Notes under the pieces: model-generated
Seen by the model: the letters and a program-made list of their open reading frames with translations, nothing else
Told to the model about the DNA's origin: nothing
Database searches by the model: none
Shown here: positions 1 through 33,333 of the stretch, one piece after another
Layout of the letters: each line of letters starts with the position of its first letter
How positions within the stretch are numbered: the stretch's first letter is position 1
Position numbers and translations under genes: made by a program
Virus genome (UHGV): UHGV-1484817
Length of the DNA: 64,000 nucleotides
DNA from: a virus
Strand: one strand, 5' to 3'

Positions 1-982
1 TCACCGTGAAATACCCCGCGTTGATGTACTGCTGGAACGGCACATTTTTACGTCCACCGGACGCTATCAGGATGCCGTTCTCCCGTAACCAGGCAAACAG
101 CGCGTTTTGCTTAAGTCCAACAACCTTTGCAAAATTCCCAATCAGGATCCCTTTAGCTACTGATACCCGGTCGGCAAAATCGACCTTAGGAGCGGCGGCT
201 ACCAGCTGCTGATTTAGCTGGTGGGCTTTCTGTTCCAGAAGCTGCTTTTGTTCAGCCAGTTCGGCAGCCAGGCGTAGGGCTTCTGGTAATGTTTGGGGGA
301 TTGCAACCGGTTGCTGTTCTTTTTGCCGGAAGTAGCTGTCTTCCAGTTTTTCAAAGAATGCCCATGCTTCATTTGTGTCCACGATCTTAGACATGCGTGC
401 AGCGCCGCGCTCTGTCCAGAGTGTAAGGCTTCTGGCGTTCTTACCAACAGAGTAACTTCCGGTTACTCTGTTCTTAAATTCTCTTAATTTTAAACCAGTT
501 AGAAGAAAGTAATGCTTACCTTCTTCAAAGCGGTCAAGGTTGCGAGACAAATTGTTGCGAATATTGGCTTCATCGACCCCATACCCTCTAGCAAGAGTTT
601 CGGTTGTCACGACACGTACTCCCTGCCATTCCAGAACGGGAATTTCATCCGGCTGATTCTGAACAACCACCAGTTCCGATTCCTGAACTGAAGGTGCATA
701 AATTTTTTCTGATTTAACGTTAGTTGCTTTCATTCTGTGTGCCTCCTTGCGTGCTTCGGCTGCGACGGTTGCGTAATTCAGATGACCCTGTTCGAGCAGG
801 TATTCACGGATATCGGTTAGCAGAATGCGGTGAACCGCGTGTTTGTCCTTTCTCCGGTAAAGTTGTTTGGTGATCATGAAGTAGTTGGCAATAACGCCCG
901 GTATATCCCTGGTACTGATACAGGCAGTGTGCTGTTCAATTGCCTCGATCATCTCTTCACGGGTGACTAATGACGTTCTCAT
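1..982 (-). CDS. ant: Antirepressor (Ant-like, KilAC-type C-terminus) paralogue; 3-prime end cut by the window edge
   Basis: Minus-strand frame opens with ATG at 982-980 behind a GGAGG RBS and stays open to the window edge; the first residues (MRTSLVTR...) parallel the 345-aa Ant at 50130-51167. The listed plus-strand ORF 6..212 is its antisense shadow. Confidence 0.7.
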   Translation of the reverse strand, partial: MRTSLVTREEMIEAIEQHTACISTRDIPGVIANYFMITKQLYRRKDKHAVHRILLTDIREYLLEQGHLNYATVAAEARKEAHRMKATNVKSEKIYAPSVQESELVVVQNQPDEIPVLEWQGVRVVTTETLARGYGVDEANIRNNLSRNLDRFEEGKHYFLLTGLKLREFKNRVTGSYSVGKNARSLTLWTERGAARMSKIVDTNEAWAFFEKLEDSYFRQKEQQPVAIPQTLPEALRLAAELAEQKQLLEQKAHQLNQQLVAAAPKVDFADRVSVAKGILIGNFAKVVGLKQNALFAWLRENGILIASGGRKNVPFQQYINAGYFTV

Positions 983-1200
983 AGTCCCTCCTGAGCAGAA
1001 GCGTTAACAGGGAGGCACCAGTAACTGAGAGAATTGCGCGAATCGATAGAAAAGCGGGCAGAGAAAATACAGGGAGCATCCGGAAGCTGAGAACGTGCCT
1101 CATCTTCTGTCGGTGCAATAACGAAGTGATAGTGACGTTTTTGGCAGGAGTAAAAGCGCCAGATAAATTCAGAATGAGCAGGGGTAGGGATAGTAGCCAC
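979..1200 (-). CDS. icd: Icd-like small protein (73 aa) overlapping the ant start
   Basis: 73-aa ORF MATIPTPAHSEF...; its stop overlaps the ant ATG (ATGA); a near-identical paralogue lies at 51164-51385; arrangement matches the P1 immI module. Confidence 0.65.
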   Translation of the reverse strand: MATIPTPAHSEFIWRFYSCQKRHYHFVIAPTEDEARSQLPDAPCIFSARFSIDSRNSLSYWCLPVNASAQEGL

Positions 1201-1204
1201 AATG

Positions 1205-1345
1205 GCAGCCTCCTTTTGCTAATTTAAGGAGCTACCGCGTGAGGTTCCAATCTCAATGGCGGTAGCACTGACTGGGTTGGAACTACCGGCGCAAAAGGGA
1301 ACCGGCCTGCCTTTCGGCAGCCCAGCCAGCACTACCATTGATCTC
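1205..1345 (-). ncRNA. c4: c4-like antisense RNA / structured leader of the immI module (boundaries approximate)
   Basis: Non-coding stretch immediately upstream of icd, almost identical to 51390-51530, with short hairpins (CTGCC-GAAA-GGCAG) and internal repeats; position corresponds to c4 in P1 immI. Confidence 0.4.
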
Positions 1346-1385
1346 TGAGCTAAACGCTACGTATGGCTGTGCGATGGCATGACAC

Positions 1386-1408
1386 AAAAAAAGACGCTTT
1401 TGGCGTCT
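1386..1408 (-). terminator. Rho-independent terminator-like hairpin (minus strand)
   Basis: Minus-strand reading AGACGCCAAAAGCGTCT followed by seven T; lies between the pacB stop and the c4 region. Confidence 0.5.
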
Positions 1409-1540
1409 GTGTCGCCTTTTGCATTATCCGGGGTCTCAATCCCGGCACCCGTTTTAATGAGGTGCCTGATAAGCATAAACCGAAAATGCCTCAAGGCGCA
1501 AGAGGTCAGGTTCAATGTAACATCGGTAGTTAAAAAACAC

Positions 1541-1557
1541 AATTTATTAGAGCAAAT
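1541..1557. promoter_or_regulatory. C1-type operator (Op51-like)
   Basis: AATTTATTAGAGCAAAT, near-perfect reverse complement of the P1 C1 operator consensus ATTGCTCTAATAAATTT; abuts the pacB stop. Confidence 0.6.
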
Positions 1558-1559
1558 AT

Positions 1560-3044
1560 TCATTCGTTAAGCCATGCCAGAGCTTCATCAACCTGCGCTT
1601 CGTCTTCGACGCTAAGCACTTCATCCTGGGGAACATAATCCGCCAGCATAGCGAAACAATATGTATCCCAATGGTCTGGTGAGTGCAGGTTGAGTTTTTT
1701 CTTCATATCCTCCTTACTCATCACCTTCCATTGACCTGCGGAGTTAATCCCTACAGGGATTTTCGACGCTTCCTCAATAGTTTCATTACCCTTATCCAGT
1801 CTCATACGACCAGATTTTACGGCCTCTGCGGCTTGAACGTTGGCATAAGCACGTTTATCAAAGTACAGGCTCTTATCTTCACGGCTATGCATCTTTTTAC
1901 CCCAGCGTATACGCTGTACGGTAATACCATAATACTCGTACATCAGATCCGCCGTTGCTTTACCCAGGCCATCGCCGTCTATCGCTATGGTGATATTTGG
2001 GAATCGCTCAGGATTACATTCTGCGAAAATTTTGGCGGCAAGCTGCGTTTCTGTAACGTCTGTGTATTCCAGCATTCGATAGTTGATTACACGGCGTTTA
2101 TTTCGCTGGCCGGACACCATCATGATATTGATAACGGACTTATCCCGTCCCGTACCACCAGCAACGTCCACACATGCAAGCCAGCCCCATCCTTTTGCAA
2201 TCTTGACTTTCCGCCGCGTTGCACGTTCAACCTCATCACGTCCAAGAAGGAAGCCATCCTGTGATTTAGGGAATAGGCCGCGTACCTTAATCATGTACAT
2301 AGGGTTATCACGCCCGCCGTACTCCGCCAGCTTCATTTTGATAAATGCTGGCGTTACCAACGGTGATTCCTCACTGTTAAGCGTGATCGCCGTATAAACG
2401 CCATCAGGGTTACCAGGACGCTTGGCCAGTTTATGGTGTGTATCGTAGAAATAGCCGCTTGGGCGTGTAGGCTGTGACAGCAATAAGATGCGGTTATCCT
2501 GTCCGGTAAGAGCACCGGTGATGATACCGAAAGCTCTATCACTGACACCGGAGGCTTCATCGATAATATACAGAAGATGATCTGCGTGTTCACCGGCGAG
2601 AGCTTCTTCACTTCCCAGACGAAAGCCCTTCGGTACTACAGTCCATACACCTTTACCAGTAATCTCATAGAAAGCGGTTTCTGTCAGAACAAAATAATCA
2701 GCAAGCCATGGGAAACGGCTGGTGGCAGTAGCCCAGTTTATCTTGATGTACTTGAATATACCGGTCATTACCTGCTGAATTTTGTTCGCAACGATAATGG
2801 CACGGGCACCTGGATACATGATTATGAACAACATGATCATGATAGAAGTCATGTCTGATTTCCCGGTACCGTGACCAGACGAAACAGATGTCTTGCTACC
2901 CTGTTCCTGCACAGACTCAATAATCAGATCCTGCTGCCAGGTAGGTGTTTTGCCGAACAAAACATCAGCGGCAGCAATCCAGTCATAACGATATAGCGCC
3001 ACCAGCTCGCGCCAACGTGGATCCGTTACGCAACTTCTGGCCAT
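1560..3044 (-). CDS. pacB: Terminase large subunit PacB
   Basis: 494-aa ORF translationally coupled to the upstream pacA-like gene; length and gene order pacA-pacB as in P1. Confidence 0.85.
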
Positions 3045-4237
3045 TAATCATCATCCCCGTATAGCTTGCGGGTAACTTCTTCGTCTTCCTCCTCGTCTTC
3101 GTCCAGGTCTTGTTCCAGCCATGGGTCGTTTGATACACCTTCAGTATCAACATCTCCATAACCGCCTGTATCAACGATATCGGCGATTTCTTCCCTACGC
3201 TGCTCAATCCACAATGCGGCATCGGCGCGGCGGTTGGCGGCCCGTTCTCGCGCAACTTTGTCCAGATCTTCAAGAGAAGGGCCACCGACGGCTGTTTGCC
3301 TTTCCTCATCATCGGTATTGGTCTTAGGAGCACGCAGATCGGCTTTGATTTGCTCCAGCATCAGGGGCGGCACTTTTCCGCCATGCGCCTCGATGAATTC
3401 AGCTGCTTCCAGCACTGACCAGTTATTTTCACGCTTTCGTTCGTATGCCAGCTTAACAATGCCAGCTTGCCCCATAGATAAAGCGTGCTTTTCCGCCTCC
3501 CGGCTTTCTTTTCGATAGTTATTCCGGATGCTGTAAATGGTGTTGATCAGGCTGCTTATCTGCGCGGAACAGCTGTTTAGCATGCTCGCGATACGATATT
3601 CAGGCGGAGTCCCTTCATCATCGTCTTTTTGCTGATCGCGCATTTCCTGCACCAGACGAATACACGTATCCCTGGCATTCTCCAGCATAAGGAGATGAGA
3701 AAGAGACTTTTCCAGAAGAGTGGTTTCCAGAACATCGGCCCCGGACCGACGCAACATAGCGCGCGCAGCCTTCCGCGCTTCAACGTTATCTATCAGGTAA
3801 TCGCCAGCTTCGAATTCAAAGCGTTCACCATCATCATCCAGGGTGTCGCGTTCCAGGCGATCACGTAAGGTCCGGTGGGCGCGGGTGATCACGTCATGAT
3901 CATCAGAACGATCATTTATGCGCTTATTTTGGCGCTTCGCATTCTCGACTGCGGCACTGACAACGGCATTAACCCTTTGTTTTTCCGCTATTTCAGCCGC
4001 AATGTGATCACCTGCATGTTGATCATTAGAGTGATCAATGATCATGCTTTTTAGTGGCTTCCTGACTGGCTTATTTGGCTTGCGGCTGTCCGCTGTCCTG
4101 GTGTCTTCTTTGAAGGCACGGAGATAACGACGTGCAGTATTAGGGTTAAGATTAAACTCGGCGGCATACTGTGCGATGGTGTAACCACCATCTCGCGCCA
4201 GGCGAGCAAAATTCTTCTTGTGATCGTCCCAGGTCAC
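3044..4237 (-). CDS. pacA: Terminase small subunit / pac-recognition protein PacA
   Basis: 397-aa ORF, acidic C-terminus; contains the TGATCA hexamer clusters typical of a P1 pac site within its coding sequence. Confidence 0.85.
3886..4044. other. pac packaging site (two clusters of TGATCA hexamers)
   Basis: TGATCA at 3886, 3897 and at 4005, 4020, 4032, 4039, with a CGATCA at 3909; two clusters about 100 bp apart, the architecture described for P1 pac (Dam-methylatable hexamers). Confidence 0.6.
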
Positions 4238-4863: not shown

Positions 4864-5907
4864 TTATCTAACGCTCGACGAGTGACTTGTGATAGCGCCG
4901 ACTCCAAGCGCGTAATCAAAGAACAATCGTTGATGCATCGCCAGCCTACCGTGCGTCTTCTCCCAATTATCGCGGTCACGCTCAATATCACGCTGGCATG
5001 ACTGGCACAGAGGAATTGCGTAAATGTCATGCGCGCATAATCGACTATGACGAACGATATAAGGCGTAATGTGAGCGCCAGCTCCCGCCGCTCCACACCC
5101 ACAGCATGGACGGGAAGCAACAAAGTCCATGTACTCAGGTAATTTTAGCGATTGCAGTTTTGGTATTTTGAAATGCGCCATGCCAGGGTCGGAGTCAACA
5201 TCCACAGGGCATACTTTTGCACGCATCGGCGCGGCGCGTTCTTCCATCATCTGAACATATGCTGTAGCGCGATCGTCATACGGGCGAATATCCGCCTCTT
5301 TCAGAGGTCCGCTATCCTGCGTTGCGGCTTTCATCTTATTTATTGATATACGGCAAACTTCTTCCGGCATCAGGTGCATCATGTTGCGCATGAAAGCCCA
5401 CCAGCACAGTTCCTGAATACTTAAATCATGGCCATCTGAAAGCCCCATTTCCTGACGGGCGACATCCAGTATCCAGTTAACGCGATTATTATGCAGCGTT
5501 TCTTTCAGCTCATTAAAACCACGCATCCGGTAATGGTTATCGTGATGCCAGCACAACAACACCGCGCTATTGTCTCGTTCTGCGTGGACAATATGGTTGT
5601 CACACCAGCTACGATCTGCGGCCTGGCATTGCCCCTCTTTCCTGCGCAACCACGCCACCAGCGCGTCAATTCCACCAATACGGCGAAACAGTTCATCGCT
5701 GTTAAAAAACGGCTGCAACGCCTCATTTGTTGCCATAGTTTGCTCGGAAACAACGAGGCCGTCGTCCATGTGCTCGATTAACTCACGCGGCACCGGCTCC
5801 ATAATAAATTTACGGCCAGCCTCCACCAGCTTTCTGACTTCCTGATCCACTTTGAATGTGGCGACGCCAAGCTCTTTTTGTACAAAGGGAGTAATTATGG
5901 CTTTCAC
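4864..5907 (-). CDS. Hypothetical protein (position of P1 pdcB), Cys-rich C-terminus
   Basis: 347-aa ORF between doc and lpa; C-terminal CxxC...CxxC cluster. Confidence 0.55.
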
Positions 5908-16957: not shown

Positions 16958-16974
16958 GATTGCTCTAATAAAAA
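16958..16974. promoter_or_regulatory. C1-type operator (forward orientation)
   Basis: ATTGCTCTAATAAAAAA, 14/17 match to consensus. Confidence 0.5.
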
Positions 16975-17010
16975 AACGTGATGAGTGTACATCACGTTTT
17001 AAAAATATGG

Positions 17011-17027
17011 AATTATTAGAGCAATAT
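17011..17027. promoter_or_regulatory. C1-type operator (reverse orientation)
   Basis: AATTATTAGAGCAATAT; forms an inverted pair with the site at 16958-16974, about 53 bp apart. Confidence 0.5.
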
Positions 17028-25519: not shown

Positions 25520-26518
25520 TTATCCGTTACCGCGCGACGGTTTCTGCGTGACAAACGTCTCAAGCATCTTTTCCGCAATTGCCGACCAGGTGTGACACTG
25601 GACCTTTTCAGCATTTTTCACGCGATCAACGCGAGCAATAACCTCATCCCAATCAATCCGCGACTTGATAACCATATGGTTCACCAAAGCCAGGCGATCT
25701 GGCGGAAGGCAATCGGGAGGCGTTAATACCAACGCCCCGCACATTGCCGCCTCAAGTACAGTTAATCCAAGGCTTTCGGGATGCGTAACGATAAACACGT
25801 CACTCTTACGCAATTCAGCTGCAAATTCGGTTGCTGGCACCGGCGTCCGTCTGTATGGAGTTACCGAAATATTCCCCGGATCAATGGTAACCAATCCGTC
25901 ATCAGTCAACGTTCTGGCCTCATACGGAACGGTCAGACGCTGAAGGTTCATAAGGATACTTAAGGAGTGATCAAAACCACTAACATCAAATGCAGCGTGG
26001 TCTACAAAAATACGCAGAACATCGTCTGTTTTGGTTTCCAGATGGAACAGATCCTGATTCGCTGCCCATCCAACATGTTTGTTAAAACGATTATGACGCT
26101 CTAACCTGCCTGGATTATCCAGGTACCGCCAGGTATCATCGCGGACAGTAAAAGTAATATCGACTGGTGCCGAATCCAGCATAGAACCGTCGTATACCTG
26201 GGCTACCCATCCAGTGAATCGACGACGCAGTTGCACGCCTATTTCCCTGGGCACCGTAGTAAAATACCGCAATCCTGGCGCTAAAATGGCTTTCGCAGAA
26301 CACGAGGTCGCAGCGGTCAACACAGCTTCAACATAATCCTCCGGGCTTTCGACGCCGGGGGAATATGGACGATGGTATTGCAATGTTACCCCTGCCTCAC
26401 TAAAGGCGCAGGCCAGGTTGTAAGCCCACATTTCCGTATATGTTTTCACATCACTGATAGCTTCAAATTTTCGCCCAATGATCAGGATGTTCATCGGCTT
26501 TTCCTCATTCCATTGCAT
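25520..26518 (-). CDS. Glycosyltransferase family-1-like protein
   Basis: C-terminal ESLGLTVLEAAMCGALVLTP motif (GT-B E-x7-E); start ATG overlaps the ban stop by 1 nt (TAATG). Confidence 0.55.
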   Translation of the reverse strand: MQWNEEKPMNILIIGRKFEAISDVKTYTEMWAYNLACAFSEAGVTLQYHRPYSPGVESPEDYVEAVLTAATSCSAKAILAPGLRYFTTVPREIGVQLRRRFTGWVAQVYDGSMLDSAPVDITFTVRDDTWRYLDNPGRLERHNRFNKHVGWAANQDLFHLETKTDDVLRIFVDHAAFDVSGFDHSLSILMNLQRLTVPYEARTLTDDGLVTIDPGNISVTPYRRTPVPATEFAAELRKSDVFIVTHPESLGLTVLEAAMCGALVLTPPDCLPPDRLALVNHMVIKSRIDWDEVIARVDRVKNAEKVQCHTWSAIAEKMLETFVTQKPSRGNG

Positions 26519-27888
26519 TAATAATCCTCTTGCCAGTCAGCACCAGCATAGTTATCAAACCGTGAGTATTGGCCGTTAAAAGCCAATCTCACCGTGCCAA
26601 TTGGGCCATTTCGTTGCTTTCCGATAATTACCTCGGCAATGCCCTTCATTTCGCTATCCGGGTGATAAACTTCGTCGCGATACAGAAACATGATCAGGTC
26701 TGCGTCCTGCTCAATTGCTCCTGATTCACGTAAATCTGAATTTACCGGTCGTTTGTCCGCACGCTGTTCAAGCGATCGATTAAGTTGTGACAATGCCACC
26801 ACCGGTACTTGTAATTCCTTCGCCAAAGCCTTCAGTGAGCGAGAAATCTCGGCAATTTCCAGCGTTCGGTTATCTTGCAGCTCGGGGACGCGCATAAGTT
26901 GCAGGTAGTCGATCATAATCATGCTCAAACCACCATTTTCTTTATAAACACGACGAGCGCGGGAACGAAGCTCTGTAGGTGTCAGGGCGCTTGAGTCATC
27001 AATAAAAATATTCTGCTTGTCCAACAGAATCCCCATTGCGCCAGAAACCCGCGCCCAATCCTCGTCGTTAAGTTGCCCTGTTCGAATACGAGTCTGATCA
27101 ACGCGTGCAAGAGAAGCCAGTGAGCGCATCATCAGCTGGTGGCTCGGCATCTCAAGGCTAAAAACCAATACGGGCTTATCGTTACGGACTGCGGCATTTT
27201 CGACGAGATTCATCGCAAACGTAGTCTTCCCCATCGATGGGCGGGCGGCGACAATAATGAGATCGGACGCCTGAAGTCCTGCCGTCTTCTTATTGAGATC
27301 GGTAAATCCGGTATCAAGCCCCGTTACACCATCATGCGGTCGCTGAAACAACTCTTCTATGCGAGATACCGTTGCATCGAGAATGCTGGCGATATCTTTT
27401 GGACCACTACCGCTCTTTTGTCGTTTTTCAGCTATTTCAAAAACGCGGCGCTCGGCCATATCCAGCAATTCATTGCTGCCCCTGCCATCCTGCGCATATC
27501 CAGCTTCAGCTATTTCATTTGCGACGGAAATCATTTCACGAACAACCGCGCGTTCACGAACGATATCCGCATAAGCACAAATATTTGCCGCGCTGGGCGT
27601 GTTCTTTGACATCTCCGCAAGGTACGCAAAACCACCGGCGCGTTCTAATTTACCGTTCTGTTCAAGTGCTTCAGCAAGTGTTATCAAATCAATCGGTTTG
27701 CCATGACTTAATAACCTCTCCATCTCACTGAAAATTTCACGATGAGCACTGGTATAAAAATCATCAGCAACTATACGATCTGCAACTTCATCCCAGCGGC
27801 AGTTATCAAGCATTAAGCCACCAAGTACAGCTTGTTCTGCACTAAGGGAATTTGGCATGGATTCAAGAGGGGATGCAGACATTAGCAC
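26518..27888 (-). CDS. ban: DnaB-family replicative helicase (Ban)
   Basis: 456-aa ORF with Walker A ARPSMGKTTFAMN and DnaB C-terminal motifs. Confidence 0.9.
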   Translation of the reverse strand: MLMSASPLESMPNSLSAEQAVLGGLMLDNCRWDEVADRIVADDFYTSAHREIFSEMERLLSHGKPIDLITLAEALEQNGKLERAGGFAYLAEMSKNTPSAANICAYADIVRERAVVREMISVANEIAEAGYAQDGRGSNELLDMAERRVFEIAEKRQKSGSGPKDIASILDATVSRIEELFQRPHDGVTGLDTGFTDLNKKTAGLQASDLIIVAARPSMGKTTFAMNLVENAAVRNDKPVLVFSLEMPSHQLMMRSLASLARVDQTRIRTGQLNDEDWARVSGAMGILLDKQNIFIDDSSALTPTELRSRARRVYKENGGLSMIMIDYLQLMRVPELQDNRTLEIAEISRSLKALAKELQVPVVALSQLNRSLEQRADKRPVNSDLRESGAIEQDADLIMFLYRDEVYHPDSEMKGIAEVIIGKQRNGPIGTVRLAFNGQYSRFDNYAGADWQEDY

Positions 27889-28167
27889 TCCACCCAGGCG
27901 TGCTGAATGTCAGATATAATCGGCATACTCAAATCACTCCTAACGATATGAGTCATCACCAGAAAATCAGGATTAATGCGCCGGACTCTTCCCGGCTGTC
28001 ACACCGAATCGCCAGGATGGTGAGTCCCTGTATCCGCTATCCCTCCAACGGTGACTTGCACATTTCGGCTACCTGGTTTGTTGCCTGAGCTAGGGGAAAA
28101 GGTAACCCCTTTAACGTCACCAGACCGCTAACGACGCATGTGCCAGACGCCGTGTTACAACCAAATA

Positions 28168-28243
28168 TGGTGGCCCCTACCGGACTTGAACCGGTGACCG
28201 TGCGATTATGAGTCGCCAGCTCTAACCACTGAGCTAAAGGGCC
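28168..28243 (-). tRNA. tRNA-Ile (anticodon CAU, lysidine type)
   Basis: 76 nt with cloverleaf, anticodon loop CTCATAA, T-loop GGTTCAAGTCC, encoded CCA; close to E. coli ileX-type tRNA as I recall it. Confidence 0.8.
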
Positions 28244-28270
28244 GGATTACTGCCAATTTTGCTTACGCTT

Positions 28271-29098
28271 TTATTTCACCGGAACAAACGGAACAGCGGT
28301 ATTACTGGTCATATACTGCGGTAATGTACCGTTCCATTTGTTGATCGCTTCCAACTCCATAACACCGGGGTTCTGGCGCAGAGCTTCACCACGTAAACGA
28401 ATGGCATCAGCTTCGGCCTGGGCTTTTGTGCGAATAGCATCAGCCTGTCCGGCAGCTTCCGCGCGCAGCATGTTGGCCTCTGCTTCACGTTGTTTGACCT
28501 CTTGCTCGCGTTGCAGGGTTTTTTGGTTTGCCGTGACTTTGGCGTTAATACTGTCAATAACTGTTGGCGGGTATTCTGGCTTACCTACATAAGAGAGGCT
28601 CATCACCTGAATGCCGATTGGCGTCATTTCTTCCTGAATGTCTTTAAGGGCTGCATCAAGCAATTCGGATTTGCCACCGTCGATAAATTTGTCGGTTGTC
28701 ATTTTGCTGGCTAACCGGTTCAGAGCATCTGCAACCTTCTGGCGTAGATCGGTATCAGTAATATCATCTACACCTTTGCGATAGGTCTGAAATACCGTTG
28801 TGACTTTTGCTGGATCAACCTTGTAGGCTACGCCGATGTGGTAACCAATGGTTGTTCCGTCGCTCATCTGGAAGCTGAACGGCTCATCGTATGTCTTCAT
28901 TTGCTTAAAGGTCGGGAAGATATAAACTTCAGTATTCAAGCCTGTCCAGTAGCGACCAACGCCAACTACTTCACCGATACCTTTATCATCCCCCAGCTTA
29001 TTTACTTTGATCCCTACGTTACCTGGCTCTACCCGATCGCATCCGGTCAGACATAAAGAACCCAAAATAATCGCTGCACTAATCAACGTTTTTTTCAT
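28271..29098 (-). CDS. SPFH/band-7-like lipoprotein
   Basis: Signal peptide with lipobox LTGC; prohibitin-like core and Ala/Glu-rich coiled coil. Confidence 0.65.
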   Translation of the reverse strand: MKKTLISAAIILGSLCLTGCDRVEPGNVGIKVNKLGDDKGIGEVVGVGRYWTGLNTEVYIFPTFKQMKTYDEPFSFQMSDGTTIGYHIGVAYKVDPAKVTTVFQTYRKGVDDITDTDLRQKVADALNRLASKMTTDKFIDGGKSELLDAALKDIQEEMTPIGIQVMSLSYVGKPEYPPTVIDSINAKVTANQKTLQREQEVKQREAEANMLRAEAAGQADAIRTKAQAEADAIRLRGEALRQNPGVMELEAINKWNGTLPQYMTSNTAVPFVPVK

Positions 29099-29315
29099 TA
29101 ATTAATTTCCTGGTTTTTTCACGAAAAAAGACTACTGCGAAAGCTGGGTAAATGAGCGCGAGAAGGACTCCCAACAATACAAGTATTGTGCTGTTAGATG
29201 AGATCATATTTGGCAAAAGCCAAACATACAGAACCAGTGACACAATCAAACAGAGGACGGCATAAATATATAACCGCACCCATAGCGTTCGACATTTGTT
29301 CGGATTGTTCTGCAT
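29079..29315 (-). CDS. Small two-TM membrane protein
   Basis: 78-aa hydrophobic ORF directly upstream of the lipoprotein gene. Confidence 0.45.
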   Translation of the reverse strand: MQNNPNKCRTLWVRLYIYAVLCLIVSLVLYVWLLPNMISSNSTILVLLGVLLALIYPAFAVVFFREKTRKLINEKNVD

Positions 29316-29477
29316 CCTCTCACTCCATTATTTAACGAATAAAAAAGCTGCGGTGCCGGGTGCCTCCCAGTGTCCTTTGGCTGGTTATCCACCGTGGACG
29401 GGGAAACAAGGAGAAATGAATGGACTGATATAACCATTTCCCCGCGTGCGCTTAGCCGCATTCACCGCAACGGAAAG

Positions 29478-30240
29478 AGCATTCTTGGTGGACCTGTAGA
29501 TTGGGATATGAACCCGTTACAGGAGAATGCTCTTACCTGTTACGTGCTCCGTTTCGTGGAGCTAACGGCGGGTGATCAGACCGCACCAGACTGGACTTAT
29601 TTCAGCGTTATGCTCATGCCAGAGAATCAAACTGTGATGGTCGGTGCTGAACTCCGACACAGGGTTGTAGCAAGCCCCGCAAAGCGCGCACTACTGTAGT
29701 TGCGGCACATCAGCCTGTGCATTCACCACAATGTTGAGAACACTGGTTGTCACGCTGCAACGCAACATTTATTCGTAGATTGGGATATGACCCCGTTACG
29801 CCAGTGTTCTCAACGTTATAGTGCCGGTTACGGTTCCGGCCAGGCCTCTTCCTCAACGGGGTGTTCTCCATACGGACTACCGTTTATTGGTCGTTCCTGC
29901 GGTTTATGTTGTGAAGCCAGATGCTTATCTTCTGGTTGCTTCAAAGAGCTGCACTTCATCACAACGGTAAGAGCACTCGATGCATTTAAGCCAAGCCCCA
30001 TAAGGGAGAATGCCCTTACCTGTTGTGTTGTGATGACCGGTGCTGATCTCCGGCTTGCGGTTATTTCAGACTCTCACGGGCGTTTAATTGCCCCGCCGAA
30101 CAGCTCTTTTCCGCAATAGCTGCAATGTCTTTCGCGCATCAGCCTGCGCATTCATCACAACGGTAAGGGTACTTCGTAGGGATTCGAACCCTCTGCCAAG
30201 CACGGCGATCTCCGACGTCGCAAAATACCCTTACCTGTTG
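29478..30240. repeat. Mosaic of tRNA-like stem-loop repeats
   Basis: Recurrent segments CATTCAYCACAAYGG, GTAGATTGGGATATGAMCCCGTTAC and CCCTTACCTGTTGTG in several copies; the listed ORFs 29370-29699 and 29700-30119 lie in this region and are probably not coding. Confidence 0.5.
30162..30235 (-). ncRNA. tRNA-like element (non-canonical): 10-bp closing stem plus T-arm
   Basis: Minus-strand reading GGTAAGGGTA...AGGG-TTCGAAT-CCCT...TACCCTTACC, 74 nt; canonical T-loop but no convincing D or anticodon arm. Confidence 0.3.
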
Positions 30241-30242
30241 TG

Positions 30243-30318
30243 TTGGTGCCGGTTAACGGACTCGAACCGCTGACATCCTGCTTACAAGGCAGGCGCTCTA
30301 CCAACTGAGCTAAACCGG
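30243..30318 (-). tRNA. tRNA-Thr (anticodon UGU)
   Basis: GCCGGTTTAGCTCAGTTGGTAGAGC...CTTGTAA...GGTTCGAGTCC...CACCA cloverleaf. Confidence 0.85.
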
Positions 30319-30320
30319 CA

Positions 30321-30395
30321 TTGGCGATGGTGGATGGATTCGAACCACCGACCAGTTGGTTAACAGCCAACTGCTCTACCGCTGAGCTACACCAT
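30321..30395 (-). tRNA. tRNA-Asn (anticodon GUU)
   Basis: GATGGTG/CACCATC acceptor stem, anticodon loop CTGTTAA, T-loop TTCGAAT, encoded CCA. Confidence 0.8.
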
Positions 30396-31050
30396 CACTT
30401 GCCGGGTACGTCTCCGGCGAGGGCTTCCACCTCCGTATGCTTTTCGGCGCACCGCGCCCTGGCTGCAATTCGGTAACAGGGGATGCACAACCCTGGCTTC
30501 CAGCGTGATTAGCGCCTTCAGCATGACGGGATATACCCGTAAATTCGTGGAACTGTACCCAAAGTGCTGTTAAGCACCGCTGTTACGCTGAAAAGAAAAC
30601 GCAACAGGAAAGGACGCTGACCAACAGATGGCCCCTTCTCGTTCATCTGGTTAATCACACCAGCGCCCTTACCTGTTGTGCCTCCCCGTTCCCTAATACA
30701 CAGACGGGGACACTCTGCGGTCGATTTTTTGACGGGGGACGACTCATACCCCGTGGCATCTGGCTTCTTAGGCCGCTACCATCATCAGATCATCGTTTGC
30801 ATTTACTTTAATGGTCAGTTTCTAAACCGCCGCAAAGTCGCTAACCATGACGAAAACCCTGAAAAAAACGCCCACCCGAAGATGGGCAAACTGGAAGCTC
30901 GTAACGCACTTCGGCGTTGCCACTTAGGCGCATGGTCAACCTGGCAACTCGGTGGTTTGTCTGGGAGGGCTAGGCCCAGCCATGCTTACCGCCGCGCCTG
31001 TCGCGGCTAACAGCTAAATCGCTCTATAAATCACGATTCATTGAGGCGAT

Positions 31051-31078
31051 ATTACACTAATAAATTTATTAGAGCAAT
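31051..31078. promoter_or_regulatory. Overlapping bipartite C1 operator around a perfect palindrome
   Basis: ATTACACTAATAAATTTATTAGAGCAAT: 15/17 forward match overlapping a 17/17 reverse match, centred on CTAATAAATTTATTAG; overlaps the dmt stop codon and precedes the tRNA leader. Confidence 0.65.
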
Positions 31079-33333
31079 ATACCTAAAACGTCATGAGCTA
31101 CACCTCGAGTGTCCCCCTTACAAGACACAGAACGTCTGGCAAAAAGAGGTTCCACTCTGAAGCCACTGTCATGATAAAGCTCTCTGATATTTGGCGCGCC
31201 ACTGTTAGTAATGAGAACCTTTGCACCTCGACGATGAGCATCCGTCAACAGAGACACCAGGCGTTTTTGCTCTTCAAACTTAAAGTCATGACCGGAATAG
31301 TTCGTGAATCCCTCTGTATTTGGAAGCGGTTCATACGGCGGATCGCAAAAGATGACATCTCCTTCTCCGGCAGCTTCAATCACCGCTGCAAAATCACCGC
31401 ATACAAACTCAGACCGCCCTTCCGCACCGAGGAAGGCTTCCATCTCCTGTAATGGGAAATACGGAGTTTTATACTTCCCATAACCGACATTGAACTCACC
31501 GGCCTGGTTGTAACGCGTCAATCCGTTAAAACAATGTCGGTTCAGGAACAAAAACGCCGCTGCGCGATGTAAATCATCATAGACTTGTTTGTTAAACGCA
31601 TTCCGTACTGCCAGGTATCCTTCCTGTGTGTTATAGTCCTGGAAGAAACGATGTGCCAGAGTGATAAGTGAATGCGCCTCGCGTTGCAGAGTCTTGTAAA
31701 AGTTAATCAGGTCAGCATTCACATCATTTAGCAGATTTTCCTGGTATCCGGCATTCATGAAGACAGCTCCGCCACCAACGAAAGGTTCAATCAGGCGCTT
31801 CCCTTCTGGCAAATAGCGAAAGATTTGTTCCAGAACACCAAATTTTCCACCAGCCCATTTGAATATGGACCGTTCGAATTCTGCCGCTGGTTTAACTTTT
31901 CGCTCTTTTGTTTCACTTCCTTCTTTCTGCCGACATACGGCCTTAGTAATCCGATCGCCAATCCAGCGCATTACTGGTATTGCCATACTATTGCCGATCG
32001 CTTTGTAACGCGGTCCGTCAGCTGCAAGCATCGCGGCCTCTTCTTCGCTTAAATCTGGATAGTGATTGCGAAGATATGCCAGTTCATCTGAATTAACTTT
32101 TTTACGCTTTTCCGTCGGGATCAACGTATGCCCATCAGGAAAACCTTGCAGCCTTTCACATTCGACAGGGGTAAGACGGCGGACAGCTACTTCTGCGTTT
32201 CTTACTTCATAGCAAACAGCTGTTGGATTTTTAGCCATTAGAGATGGTGAAGTATTCTTAGTTGCAGCATGTTGTGTACCGCTCATACGCTCAGGAAAAG
32301 CCAATGTAACAAGATGCTCATGGCTTTCTTGCTCACGTGCCCGCAATGTACCATGCCCTTCTGACCAAAAACCTGCTCCTGTGCTGCTAAAAACGGCAAG
32401 GTCAGTGGCATCTTTAAAATCTCTTGCCTTTACTGTCGATGCGGTTTCATCGTCAATATATTCCCCAAATGCTGCCATCCTGAAAGCGTTTACGGCTTTC
32501 GTCGATTTCATACCGGGTGGAATGTCAGCGTGTAGGCATGGATTTAGGCTTTCGCCACTGATTGCAGCGCCATTTGCAATAATGGCGGAAGCGATTTCCT
32601 TCTTTTTTCGGCTCGGCGCAATATCCCGGCGCACGCCTTCGAACTCAAAAAGTACCGTTGCGGGATCGAGGTCTGTTCGAGCACTTGCGACAACAAACAC
32701 GCGTCGGCGTCGTTGTGCCACTCCGAAGTATTGGGCATCAAGGATTCTCCAGGCCACTTTTCGCTGCGGTCCATAAATACAACCACACTGCGGCCACTTT
32801 GGAGCATGGCAACCGGTTTTGCCATCCCACCGCCAGAACGCGTTACTTTTTCCTGATTCAGGTCGATCACCTGGTTCAAATGGCGCATCTTCTCCAGCCA
32901 ATCCGGCAAGGAAACATCCGAAGGCGTTATCTGCCGATGACAGGACTCCTGGGACATTTTCCCAGACGATAACTGTCGGTTTGAGGAAGGACTCAGACCG
33001 TTTGTCGTCAATTGCATTTGCAAGCTCCACATACTTCAAAGTTAGCGCGCCGCGTTCATCATCAAGCCCACCACGTAAGCCCGCGATACTGAATGCCTGA
33101 CAAGGCGTACCCCCGACGAGCACATCAGGGGATTCGATTTCCCCAGCCAGGACTTTTTTGGCAAGTTTTGTCATGTCGCCAAGGTTGGCGACATGGGGCC
33201 AGCGGTGCGCAAGAACGGCAGATGGAAAAGGCTCGATTTCAGCAAACCACGCCGGACGCATACCCAACGGTTCCCAGGCAATACTCGCGGCTTCAATTCC
33301 ACTGCAAACAGATCCATAGCACAGCTCTTTCAC
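31069..33333 (-). CDS. dmt: Bifunctional DNA methyltransferase (C5-cytosine domain fused to N6-adenine domain)
   Basis: N-terminal [11 protein letters not shown] (PCQ) and ENVPG motifs; C-terminal DPPY motif; 754 aa. Confidence 0.85.

Follow-up and report, generated by a model that had tools for sequence, protein, structure and literature searches.

The 28-bp element at 31051-31078 of the window (the whole 64,000-nucleotide stretch of viral DNA analyzed here) is, by its identity to curated phage sequence, the bivalent P1 C1 operator Obanab (Op72ab), with C1/Bof binding taken from annotation, from the literature (PMC8546580) and from established knowledge. It lies on top of the annotated promoter P1ban in a P1-like prophage-plasmid, where bound C1 would very probably occlude RNA polymerase and derepression would lead to transcription of the ban operon. 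The operator pair has long been known from P1 and P7 and is a rediscovery, not a new site; its confirmation in a P1-like plasmid adds only its invariance across hundreds of P1-like plasmids. The leader that it heads encloses a conserved, putatively tmRNA-like RNA that is unannotated in the P1, JL22 and D6 records.

A P1-like phage-plasmid

The 2-kb stretch around the site shares 99% identity with JL22 and RCS47, 98.5% with P1 and 96% with P7. Judged by homology, the window is a P1-like phage-plasmid in the orientation opposite to that of the P1 GenBank record; in this region a window position equals the coordinate in reverse-complemented AF234172 63945-73749 plus 25995. The operator region is also contained in 469 PLSDB plasmids.

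No match to C1 was found within the 64-kb window, which places c1 outside it. In JL22, c1 lies ~170 bp past the stretch that matches the left end of the window and is 98.9% identical to P1 C1, and across the nearest relatives C1 shares 98.9-99.3% identity with P1 C1 (tblastn). The left end of the window (1-3266) is itself unlike P1: its pacB is 82% identical to P1 pacB, and after pacB an immI-like segment (icd/ant/roi annotated in JL22, RCS47 and D6) stands in place of c1, which lies just outside the window.

Two overlapping C1 operators at the end of dmt

We scanned the whole window on both strands with the 17-bp asymmetric C1 consensus ATTGCTCTAATAAATTT, allowing at most three mismatches. 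The scan returned 12 matches versus 0.29 expected, and 0 of 100 shuffles reached 12; chance is therefore excluded. The sequence of 31051-31078 (+) is ATTACACTAATAAATTTATTAGAGCAAT, and its parts are as follows.

31062..31078, minus strand: Oban-a (former Op72a), ATTGCTCTAATAAATTT, 17/17 to the consensus; P1 annotation 5067-5083 (AF234172 63945-73749 reverse-complemented)
31051..31067, plus strand: Oban-b (former Op72b), ATTACACTAATAAATTT, 15/17; P1 annotation 5056-5072 (same reverse-complemented AF234172 segment); Op(ban[b]) in P7
31057..31072, no strand: perfect 16-bp palindrome, CTAATAAATTTATTAG, made by the overlapping Oban-a and Oban-b
31049..31077, minus strand: sigma-70 promoter P1ban from the P1 annotation, with -35 TTGCTC (31077-31072), a 17-nt spacer and -10 TAATAT (31054-31049)

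The two sites are inverted and overlap by 6 bp to form the 28-bp unit. The first-pass annotation had described a 17/17 reverse and a 15/17 forward C1 operator at this place, and the consensus scan recovered both, with 0 and 2 mismatches, respectively. Its description of the element as perfectly palindromic applies to the 16-bp core at 31057-31072 and fails for the 28-bp unit, which is only partly palindromic (ATTACAC versus ATTGCTC). The overlap that it saw with the end of the methyltransferase gene is borne out, as the TAA stop codon of dmt (31071-31069) lies inside the reverse site Oban-a.

In P1, the identical sequence (AF234172 68667-68696) is annotated as 'divalent C1-controlled operator Obanab; corresponds to former Op72ab; controls expression of ban', with the components Obana and Obanb. 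In P7 the two sites are named Op(ban[a]) and Op(ban[b]), and the record says of them 'regulates/controls expression of trnRNA, ...'. The 28 bp, together with ~60 nt that follow, are invariant in P1, P7, SJ46 and JL22, and Oban-a is also identical in two IncY plasmids. In these plasmids, which share 95-96% identity over the stretch, the operator and the next ~60 nt are unchanged while the preceding 50 nt of dmt hold 7 variable positions. A single base 8 nt upstream of the operator differs from P1 and P7 (A versus G). Identity to the curated P1/P7 operator-promoter, this strict conservation and the order of the downstream genes are the observations behind our reading of the element.

D6 has a different sequence at the Oban position and no Oban there; the P1 operator consensus was unmatched in the stretch of D6 examined, and D6 was absent from the C1 tblastn hits. 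Homology between D6 and P1 begins exactly at a hairpin at 30888-30862. Elsewhere in the window we noted about ten further C1-operator-like sites with 1-3 mismatches (1540, 4846, 14867, 16959/17009, 19726, 20633, 50036 and 51720), including a facing pair at 16959-16975 (+) and 17009-17025 (-).

C1 operators number 22, are dispersed and follow a 17-bp asymmetric consensus, and Lxc, C1 and the operator form a ternary complex (PMC8546580).

The operator covers the annotated promoter of the ban operon

Oban-a contains the P1ban -35 hexamer, and Oban-b overlaps the -10. Both hexamers being under the two C1 sites, the mechanism would therefore be promoter occlusion. The first-pass annotation had expected a promoter downstream of the site; P1ban overlaps the site instead. 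The P1 record lists 'sigma 70 promoter P1ban' without the label 'predicted', which it gives to a second promoter, P2ban, that the operator overlaps as well. In a loose promoter scan of 31130-30380 (-), P1ban was the sole promoter-like match at the operator, and the scan returned elsewhere only weak overlapping matches with one common -10, GATGAT (30818/30817-30789), inside the tmRNA-like element. A stricter scan missed P1ban because its -35 matches at only 3 of 6 positions.

C1 occupies each operator site as a monomer. In a lysogen, two C1 molecules would occupy the two inverted, overlapping 17-bp sites, one over the -35 and the other over the -10, and exclude RNA polymerase. Mutations in bof partly derepress ban. 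When C1 is inactivated, minus-strand transcription would begin near 31042, ~7 nt past the -10, and run through a dicF-like region. Transcripts that pass a hairpin followed by seven T (hairpin-T7, 30888-30862) would then include the tmRNA-like RNA, tRNA-Asn, tRNA-Thr, a cargo gene, tRNA-Met(CAT), ban and dbn. C1/Bof binding and promoter activity are taken here from annotation and established knowledge; we infer the transcription start and the read-through to the tRNAs. The ban gene is under C1 control and is induced on lytic induction, as measured by RT-qPCR (PMC4713147).

The genes around the site, all on one strand, are the following.

34584..34600, minus strand: Odmt (former Op68), C1 operator with promoter Pdmt, 16/17; P1 8589-8605 (reverse-complemented AF234172 63945-73749); heads the uhr-hrdC-dmt operon
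31069..33333, minus strand: dmt, bifunctional DNA methyltransferase, 754-codon ORF with D12 N6-adenine and C5-cytosine methylase domains
30322..30396, minus strand: tRNA-Asn (GTT), 654 nt downstream of the operator
30244..30319, minus strand: tRNA-Thr (TGT), same strand as tRNA-Asn
28274..29098, minus strand: gene of the SPFH/Band-7 family (275 aa, E=1e-30), downstream of the tRNA-Asn/Thr pair and upstream of tRNA(CAT)
28168..28243, minus strand: tRNA with anticodon CAT, called Met by ARAGORN; the P1 homologue is annotated trnI (Ile2)
26521..27888, minus strand: ban, DnaB-type replicative helicase, DnaB_C E=1e-107; names the operon
25523..26518, minus strand: dbn, final gene of the unit, from ORF, domain search and P1 annotation

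Read along the minus strand, the unit thus runs from the leader through tRNA-Asn, tRNA-Thr, the SPFH/Band-7 gene, tRNA(CAT) and ban to dbn, all co-oriented. By gene order and P1 annotation, the site is the operator-promoter of the whole ban operon and not a device specific to the tRNAs. By the same comparison, the ban operon carries variable cargo, since the SPFH/Band-7 gene occupies the interval in which P1 has tciA/tciB/tciC.

Several earlier proposals can be read against this gene map. The operator at 34584-34600 had been set apart as a separate upstream site heading the operon, and with 16 of 17 positions matched it is P1 Odmt (Op68). The suggestion that the tRNAs are under direct repressor control, apart from the 34.6-kb promoter, agrees with the curated P1/P7 annotation of the identical sequence. 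The untranslated leader of roughly 650 bp is there as described, with 654 nt to the tRNAs on the same strand, but it is not empty, as it holds the tmRNA-like RNA with its tag frame. The first-pass annotation had named C1 operators, not the operator-promoter of a ban operon that continues past the tRNAs to ban and dbn.

A terminator-like hairpin and alternative readings of the site

Between P1ban and the tRNAs lies a further element.

30862..30888, minus strand: intrinsic-terminator-like hairpin with T7, TGCCCATCTTCGGGTGGGCG, inside the P1-annotated 'dicF-like region' (window ~30853-30954)

Of the 8 pairs in the hairpin, 5 are G-C, and the MFE and centroid folds both contain it. Hairpin and T7 are kept in P1, P7, SJ46, JL22 and D6 and lie ~155-180 nt past the putative start near 31042. 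An alternative pairing partner for the T-run and the 3' half of the hairpin is GGUAAGGGCGC at 30673-30663. The reading of the leader as a DicF sRNA, suggested by the term 'dicF-like region' in the P1 record, was rejected: the Rfam DicF covariance model was unmatched at E<=1 over 27500-31500 and at E<=10 over 30850-31060. Within the early P1ban transcript, 30912-31006 (-) is ~75% similar to lambdoid early-left regions, such as that of HannyBb, between the repressor and exonuclease genes.

P1ban might mainly yield an RNA of ~175-180 nt that ends at the hairpin-T7, with the tRNAs and the tmRNA-like RNA made mostly from another, unrecognised promoter or processed from late or read-through transcripts, and hence not C1-gated. 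We regard this as unlikely, even though the stability of the hairpin and its T7 speak for it, as does its conservation in D6, where the upstream sequence is unrelated and the RNA array stands behind a different region without a match to the P1 operator consensus. Against it, the only candidates besides P1ban in 31130-30380 (-) are the weak GATGAT matches inside the tmRNA-like element. The P1/P7 curators moreover assign both the tRNAs and ban to this operator; because ban, 3 kb downstream, is put under Obanab, some read-through past the hairpin must occur. The induction of ban once C1 is inactivated (PMC4713147) also speaks against this reading.

Alternatively, the bound C1 pair could serve mainly as a roadblock where dmt ends, halting transcripts from Pdmt or from late promoters inside dmt before they enter the ban operon, in place of controlling a promoter of its own. 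In favor of this, the stop codon of dmt lies within the site, and the P7 record predicts a late promoter within dam. Still, the annotated sigma-70 -35 and -10 coincide with the two half-sites in the classic geometry of occlusion, as at Oc1ab/Pc1, and Pdmt is itself repressed by C1, which makes a mainly roadblocking role rather improbable. Finally, an AT-rich palindrome arisen by chance, without regulatory role, has AT-richness and nothing else in its favor and is practically negligible in view of the 17/17 and 15/17 consensus matches, an enrichment that none of the shuffles reached, the invariance of the element across diverged relatives and its curation as an operator in P1 and P7.

A conserved tmRNA-like RNA in the leader

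We compared the leader with phage genomes in a sensitive BLAST search, in which 30858-30683 (-) matched ~260 unrelated phages at 70-88% identity. These include T1-like, Vi1-like (Ackermannviridae) and N4-like (ECBP1, Pylas) phages and Cronobacter phage ESP2949-1, and most of the matches fall in DNA without annotation. Overall, the element is present in about 280 phage records, P1-like ones included, and a pattern scan of IMG/VR located it at 120 loci or more. The same pattern occurs in only 4 of 185,579 species-representative bacterial genomes, and the element is therefore phage- or plasmid-borne. Comparative analysis delimited the following parts.

30660..30872, minus strand: conserved tmRNA-like structured RNA, ~200 nt
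30800-30768, minus strand: tag frame ANDDLMMVAA*, resume codon GCA, with UAAAU before GCA
30781-30777 with 30758-30754, minus strand: stop-codon hairpin, stop codon in the loop
30754-30749 with 30737-30732, minus strand: pseudoknot stem S1 of the tmRNA-like RNA
30743-30740 with 30723-30720, minus strand: pseudoknot stem S2 of the tmRNA-like RNA
30710-30683, minus strand: terminal hairpin of the tmRNA-like RNA

The copies share an invariant ...ACCA-N2-AA-N2-UAAAU directly 5' of GCA AAC GA. In 136 of 136 copies, the frame opened by this GCA runs for exactly 10 codons and then stops, across 31 distinct nucleotide versions that encode 17 peptides ending in AA or VA; the two other frames vary in length. 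P1-like elements encode ANDDLMMVAA; other copies have ANDDVVLMAA, ANEEMYLAVA, ANDEQFLAVA or further variants.

The structure was derived from anchored per-sequence helix searches and pair counts on hand-set alignment columns; these searches replaced an all-against-all covariation list that was dominated by clade structure. Flanks included in the MAFFT alignments misaligned, which left RNAalifold with almost no structure. A second helix encloses the stop-codon hairpin. The H-type pseudoknot that comes next keeps a constant distance: S1 begins 16 nt past the stop, and in S2 the S1 loop pairs with a segment whose end lies 49-50 nt past the stop. S1 has at least eight compensatory variants (ACGGGG/CCCCGU, GCAAGG/CCUUGU, GUGAGG/CCUCAU and UAGUCAGGG/CCCUGAUUA, among others), and S2 has four (GUCG/CGAC, CCGA/UCGG, CCAG/CUGG and CCAA/UUGG). 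In an alignment of 38 sequences, 87.7% of cells pair, versus 29-47% in controls with the partners slid; both partners change in 13 of the 18 pairs, and the observed covariation is reached by none of 500 shuffles. The stems of the terminal hairpin covary, and its loop is conserved as (G)UGUGAUUAAUAA or UGUGUAUUAGRA. T1-type copies have the whole element closed by a helix of 12-17 bp with covarying outer pairs, and the P1-type copy, folded by itself, takes up the comparative structure (z = -3.5). A search upstream of the tag frame found no pseudoknot.

Two further pairings were considered and rejected. A pseudoknot between the terminal-hairpin loop GUGUG and a downstream CACA is unconserved in N4-like and Vi1-like copies, and a P2-like pairing, UUUGCG/CGCA, holds in P1 and T1 types and is poorly supported in ECBP1 types.

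Likeness to tmRNA (SsrA) lies in the message half. The frame opens at GCA without a start codon, and the peptide starts with AND or ANE and ends, degron-like, in AA or VA; the E. coli tmRNA tag is ANDENYALAA. U and A stand at -5/-4 before the resume codon, where E. coli has UAGUC|GCA, and the stop codon sits in a hairpin loop, with an H-type pseudoknot after the frame. In E. coli tmRNA, the conserved U85/A86, to which this U and A correspond, set the reading frame (PMC2481249). Unlike tmRNA, the element has a single pseudoknot and is only ~200 nt long, without a recognisable tRNA-like domain (T-loop, conserved G3:U70, terminal CCA). Its best Rfam match was tmRNA_permuted, whose gathering score is 47; the match reached 16-24 bits and covers the message part only, with precisely the upstream-plus-tag segment aligned at high posterior. 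ARAGORN called a tmRNA in 0 of the 132 sequences scanned.

Candidates for an acceptor end fared no better. A GUUUU/GAAAC helix followed by NN and the invariant ACCA was rejected because its outer pairs lack covariation, and the long closing helix taken as an acceptor stem with G3.U70 because its third pair is G.U, A-U, G-C or A/C depending on the copy. A separate acceptor piece nearby was rejected as well: T-loop motifs lie at inconsistent distances and are absent near many copies, and ARAGORN calls none. As no tRNA-like domain could be demonstrated, we do not file the leader RNA as a tmRNA; from its comparative structure, it is a tmRNA-like message-plus-pseudoknot module.

An exhaustive ssrA survey, RefSeq viruses included, reported tmRNAs for mycobacteriophages, phage G and DS6A and for no other phages (PMC4131195). 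ARAGORN and Rfam-type models, on which the tmRNA database relies in its 2025 update (PMC11915505), both miss the present element. In the literature searched, with incomplete coverage, we found neither the tag peptides nor the term 'tmRNA-like' tied to these phages.

Further elements of the stable-RNA array

A repeated box, CACAACAGGTAAGRGC, occurs in four minus-strand copies (30680-30661, 30243-30226, 30027-30011 and 29542-29529), with 6 matches across the window versus 0.57 expected; one copy lies directly 3' of the CCA end of tRNA-Thr. The first three boxes pair with downstream complements of the GTGCTCTTACCGTTGTG type at 30619-30602, 30176-30156 and 29977-29960, giving helices of ~17-21 bp, for instance between 30678-30661 and 30619-30602, where 17 of 18 positions pair. 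T1-like phages have these boxes on either side of the tmRNA-like element too. The boxes resemble stems for processing or borders of cassettes within a stable-RNA array.

Within one long box helix, 30156-30243 (-) holds a tRNA-like remnant, GGCAGAGGGTTCGAATCCCTACGAAGT (T-arm and 3' acceptor strand), uncalled by ARAGORN, and the motif GGCAGAGGGTTCGAATCC also lies 3' of the tmRNA-like element in some T1-like contigs (L017, L055, L071). Lambdoid and Stx-converting phages (mEp460, Stx2a/Stx2c phages, IME207) have unannotated DNA with 97-98.6% identity to the 137 bp at 30026-30162, a similarity that suggests a small shared module in the RNA array. The Rfam model of the sRNA STnc100 matches 29349-29469 (-) below threshold, at 32.7 bits and E=1.5e-4 (gathering score 47).

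Discussion

The operator pair described here illustrates that real operators are recoverable by reading the sequence only. Beyond the operator, P1ban would drive a conserved RNA array in a region, from the operator to the tRNA genes, that the P1, JL22 and D6 annotations leave largely blank. We tentatively raise the possibility, which we hold to be the less probable outcome, that the C1/Bof-gated ban promoter heads a stable-RNA array including an undescribed, widespread phage RNA of the tmRNA message-half type that acts on, or interferes with, trans-translation. For this proposal to hold, three things must be true together: P1ban read-through makes the RNA, the RNA acts on trans-translation, and it has no prior description. 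If it were true, the P1 immunity repressor would directly gate a ribosome-rescue or tagging function at the lytic switch, and the same module would be used by T1-like, Vi1-like, N4-like and other phages. If functional, the element would connect prophage immunity with the quality control of translation and constitute a new RNA family in about 280 sequenced phages.

Comparison with known repressor systems

The closest known systems are P1 Obanab/P1ban and P7 Op(ban), which share with the window the same 28 bp, their position across the dmt/dam stop codon, the overlap with the -35 and -10, and the order tRNA-Asn, tRNA-Thr ... tRNA(CAT), ban, dbn. While the operator is identical to P1 Obanab, the cargo between the tRNAs and ban differs, with the SPFH/Band-7 gene here and tciA/B/C in P1. 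P1 Oc1ab (Op99a/b) at Pc1 resembles Oban in having two overlapping inverted 17-bp C1 sites on a sigma-70 promoter, but it lies at another locus, outside the window, and controls c1 (autoregulation) and not lytic-phase genes. In lambda OR/OL, as at Oban, a repressor covers the -35 and -10 of an early promoter; there, however, tandem symmetric sites bind cooperative dimers, whereas P1 C1 recognizes asymmetric 17-mers at ~22 places in the genome (PMC8546580). The palindrome at Oban, unlike the lambda sites, arises only from the overlap of two asymmetric sites.
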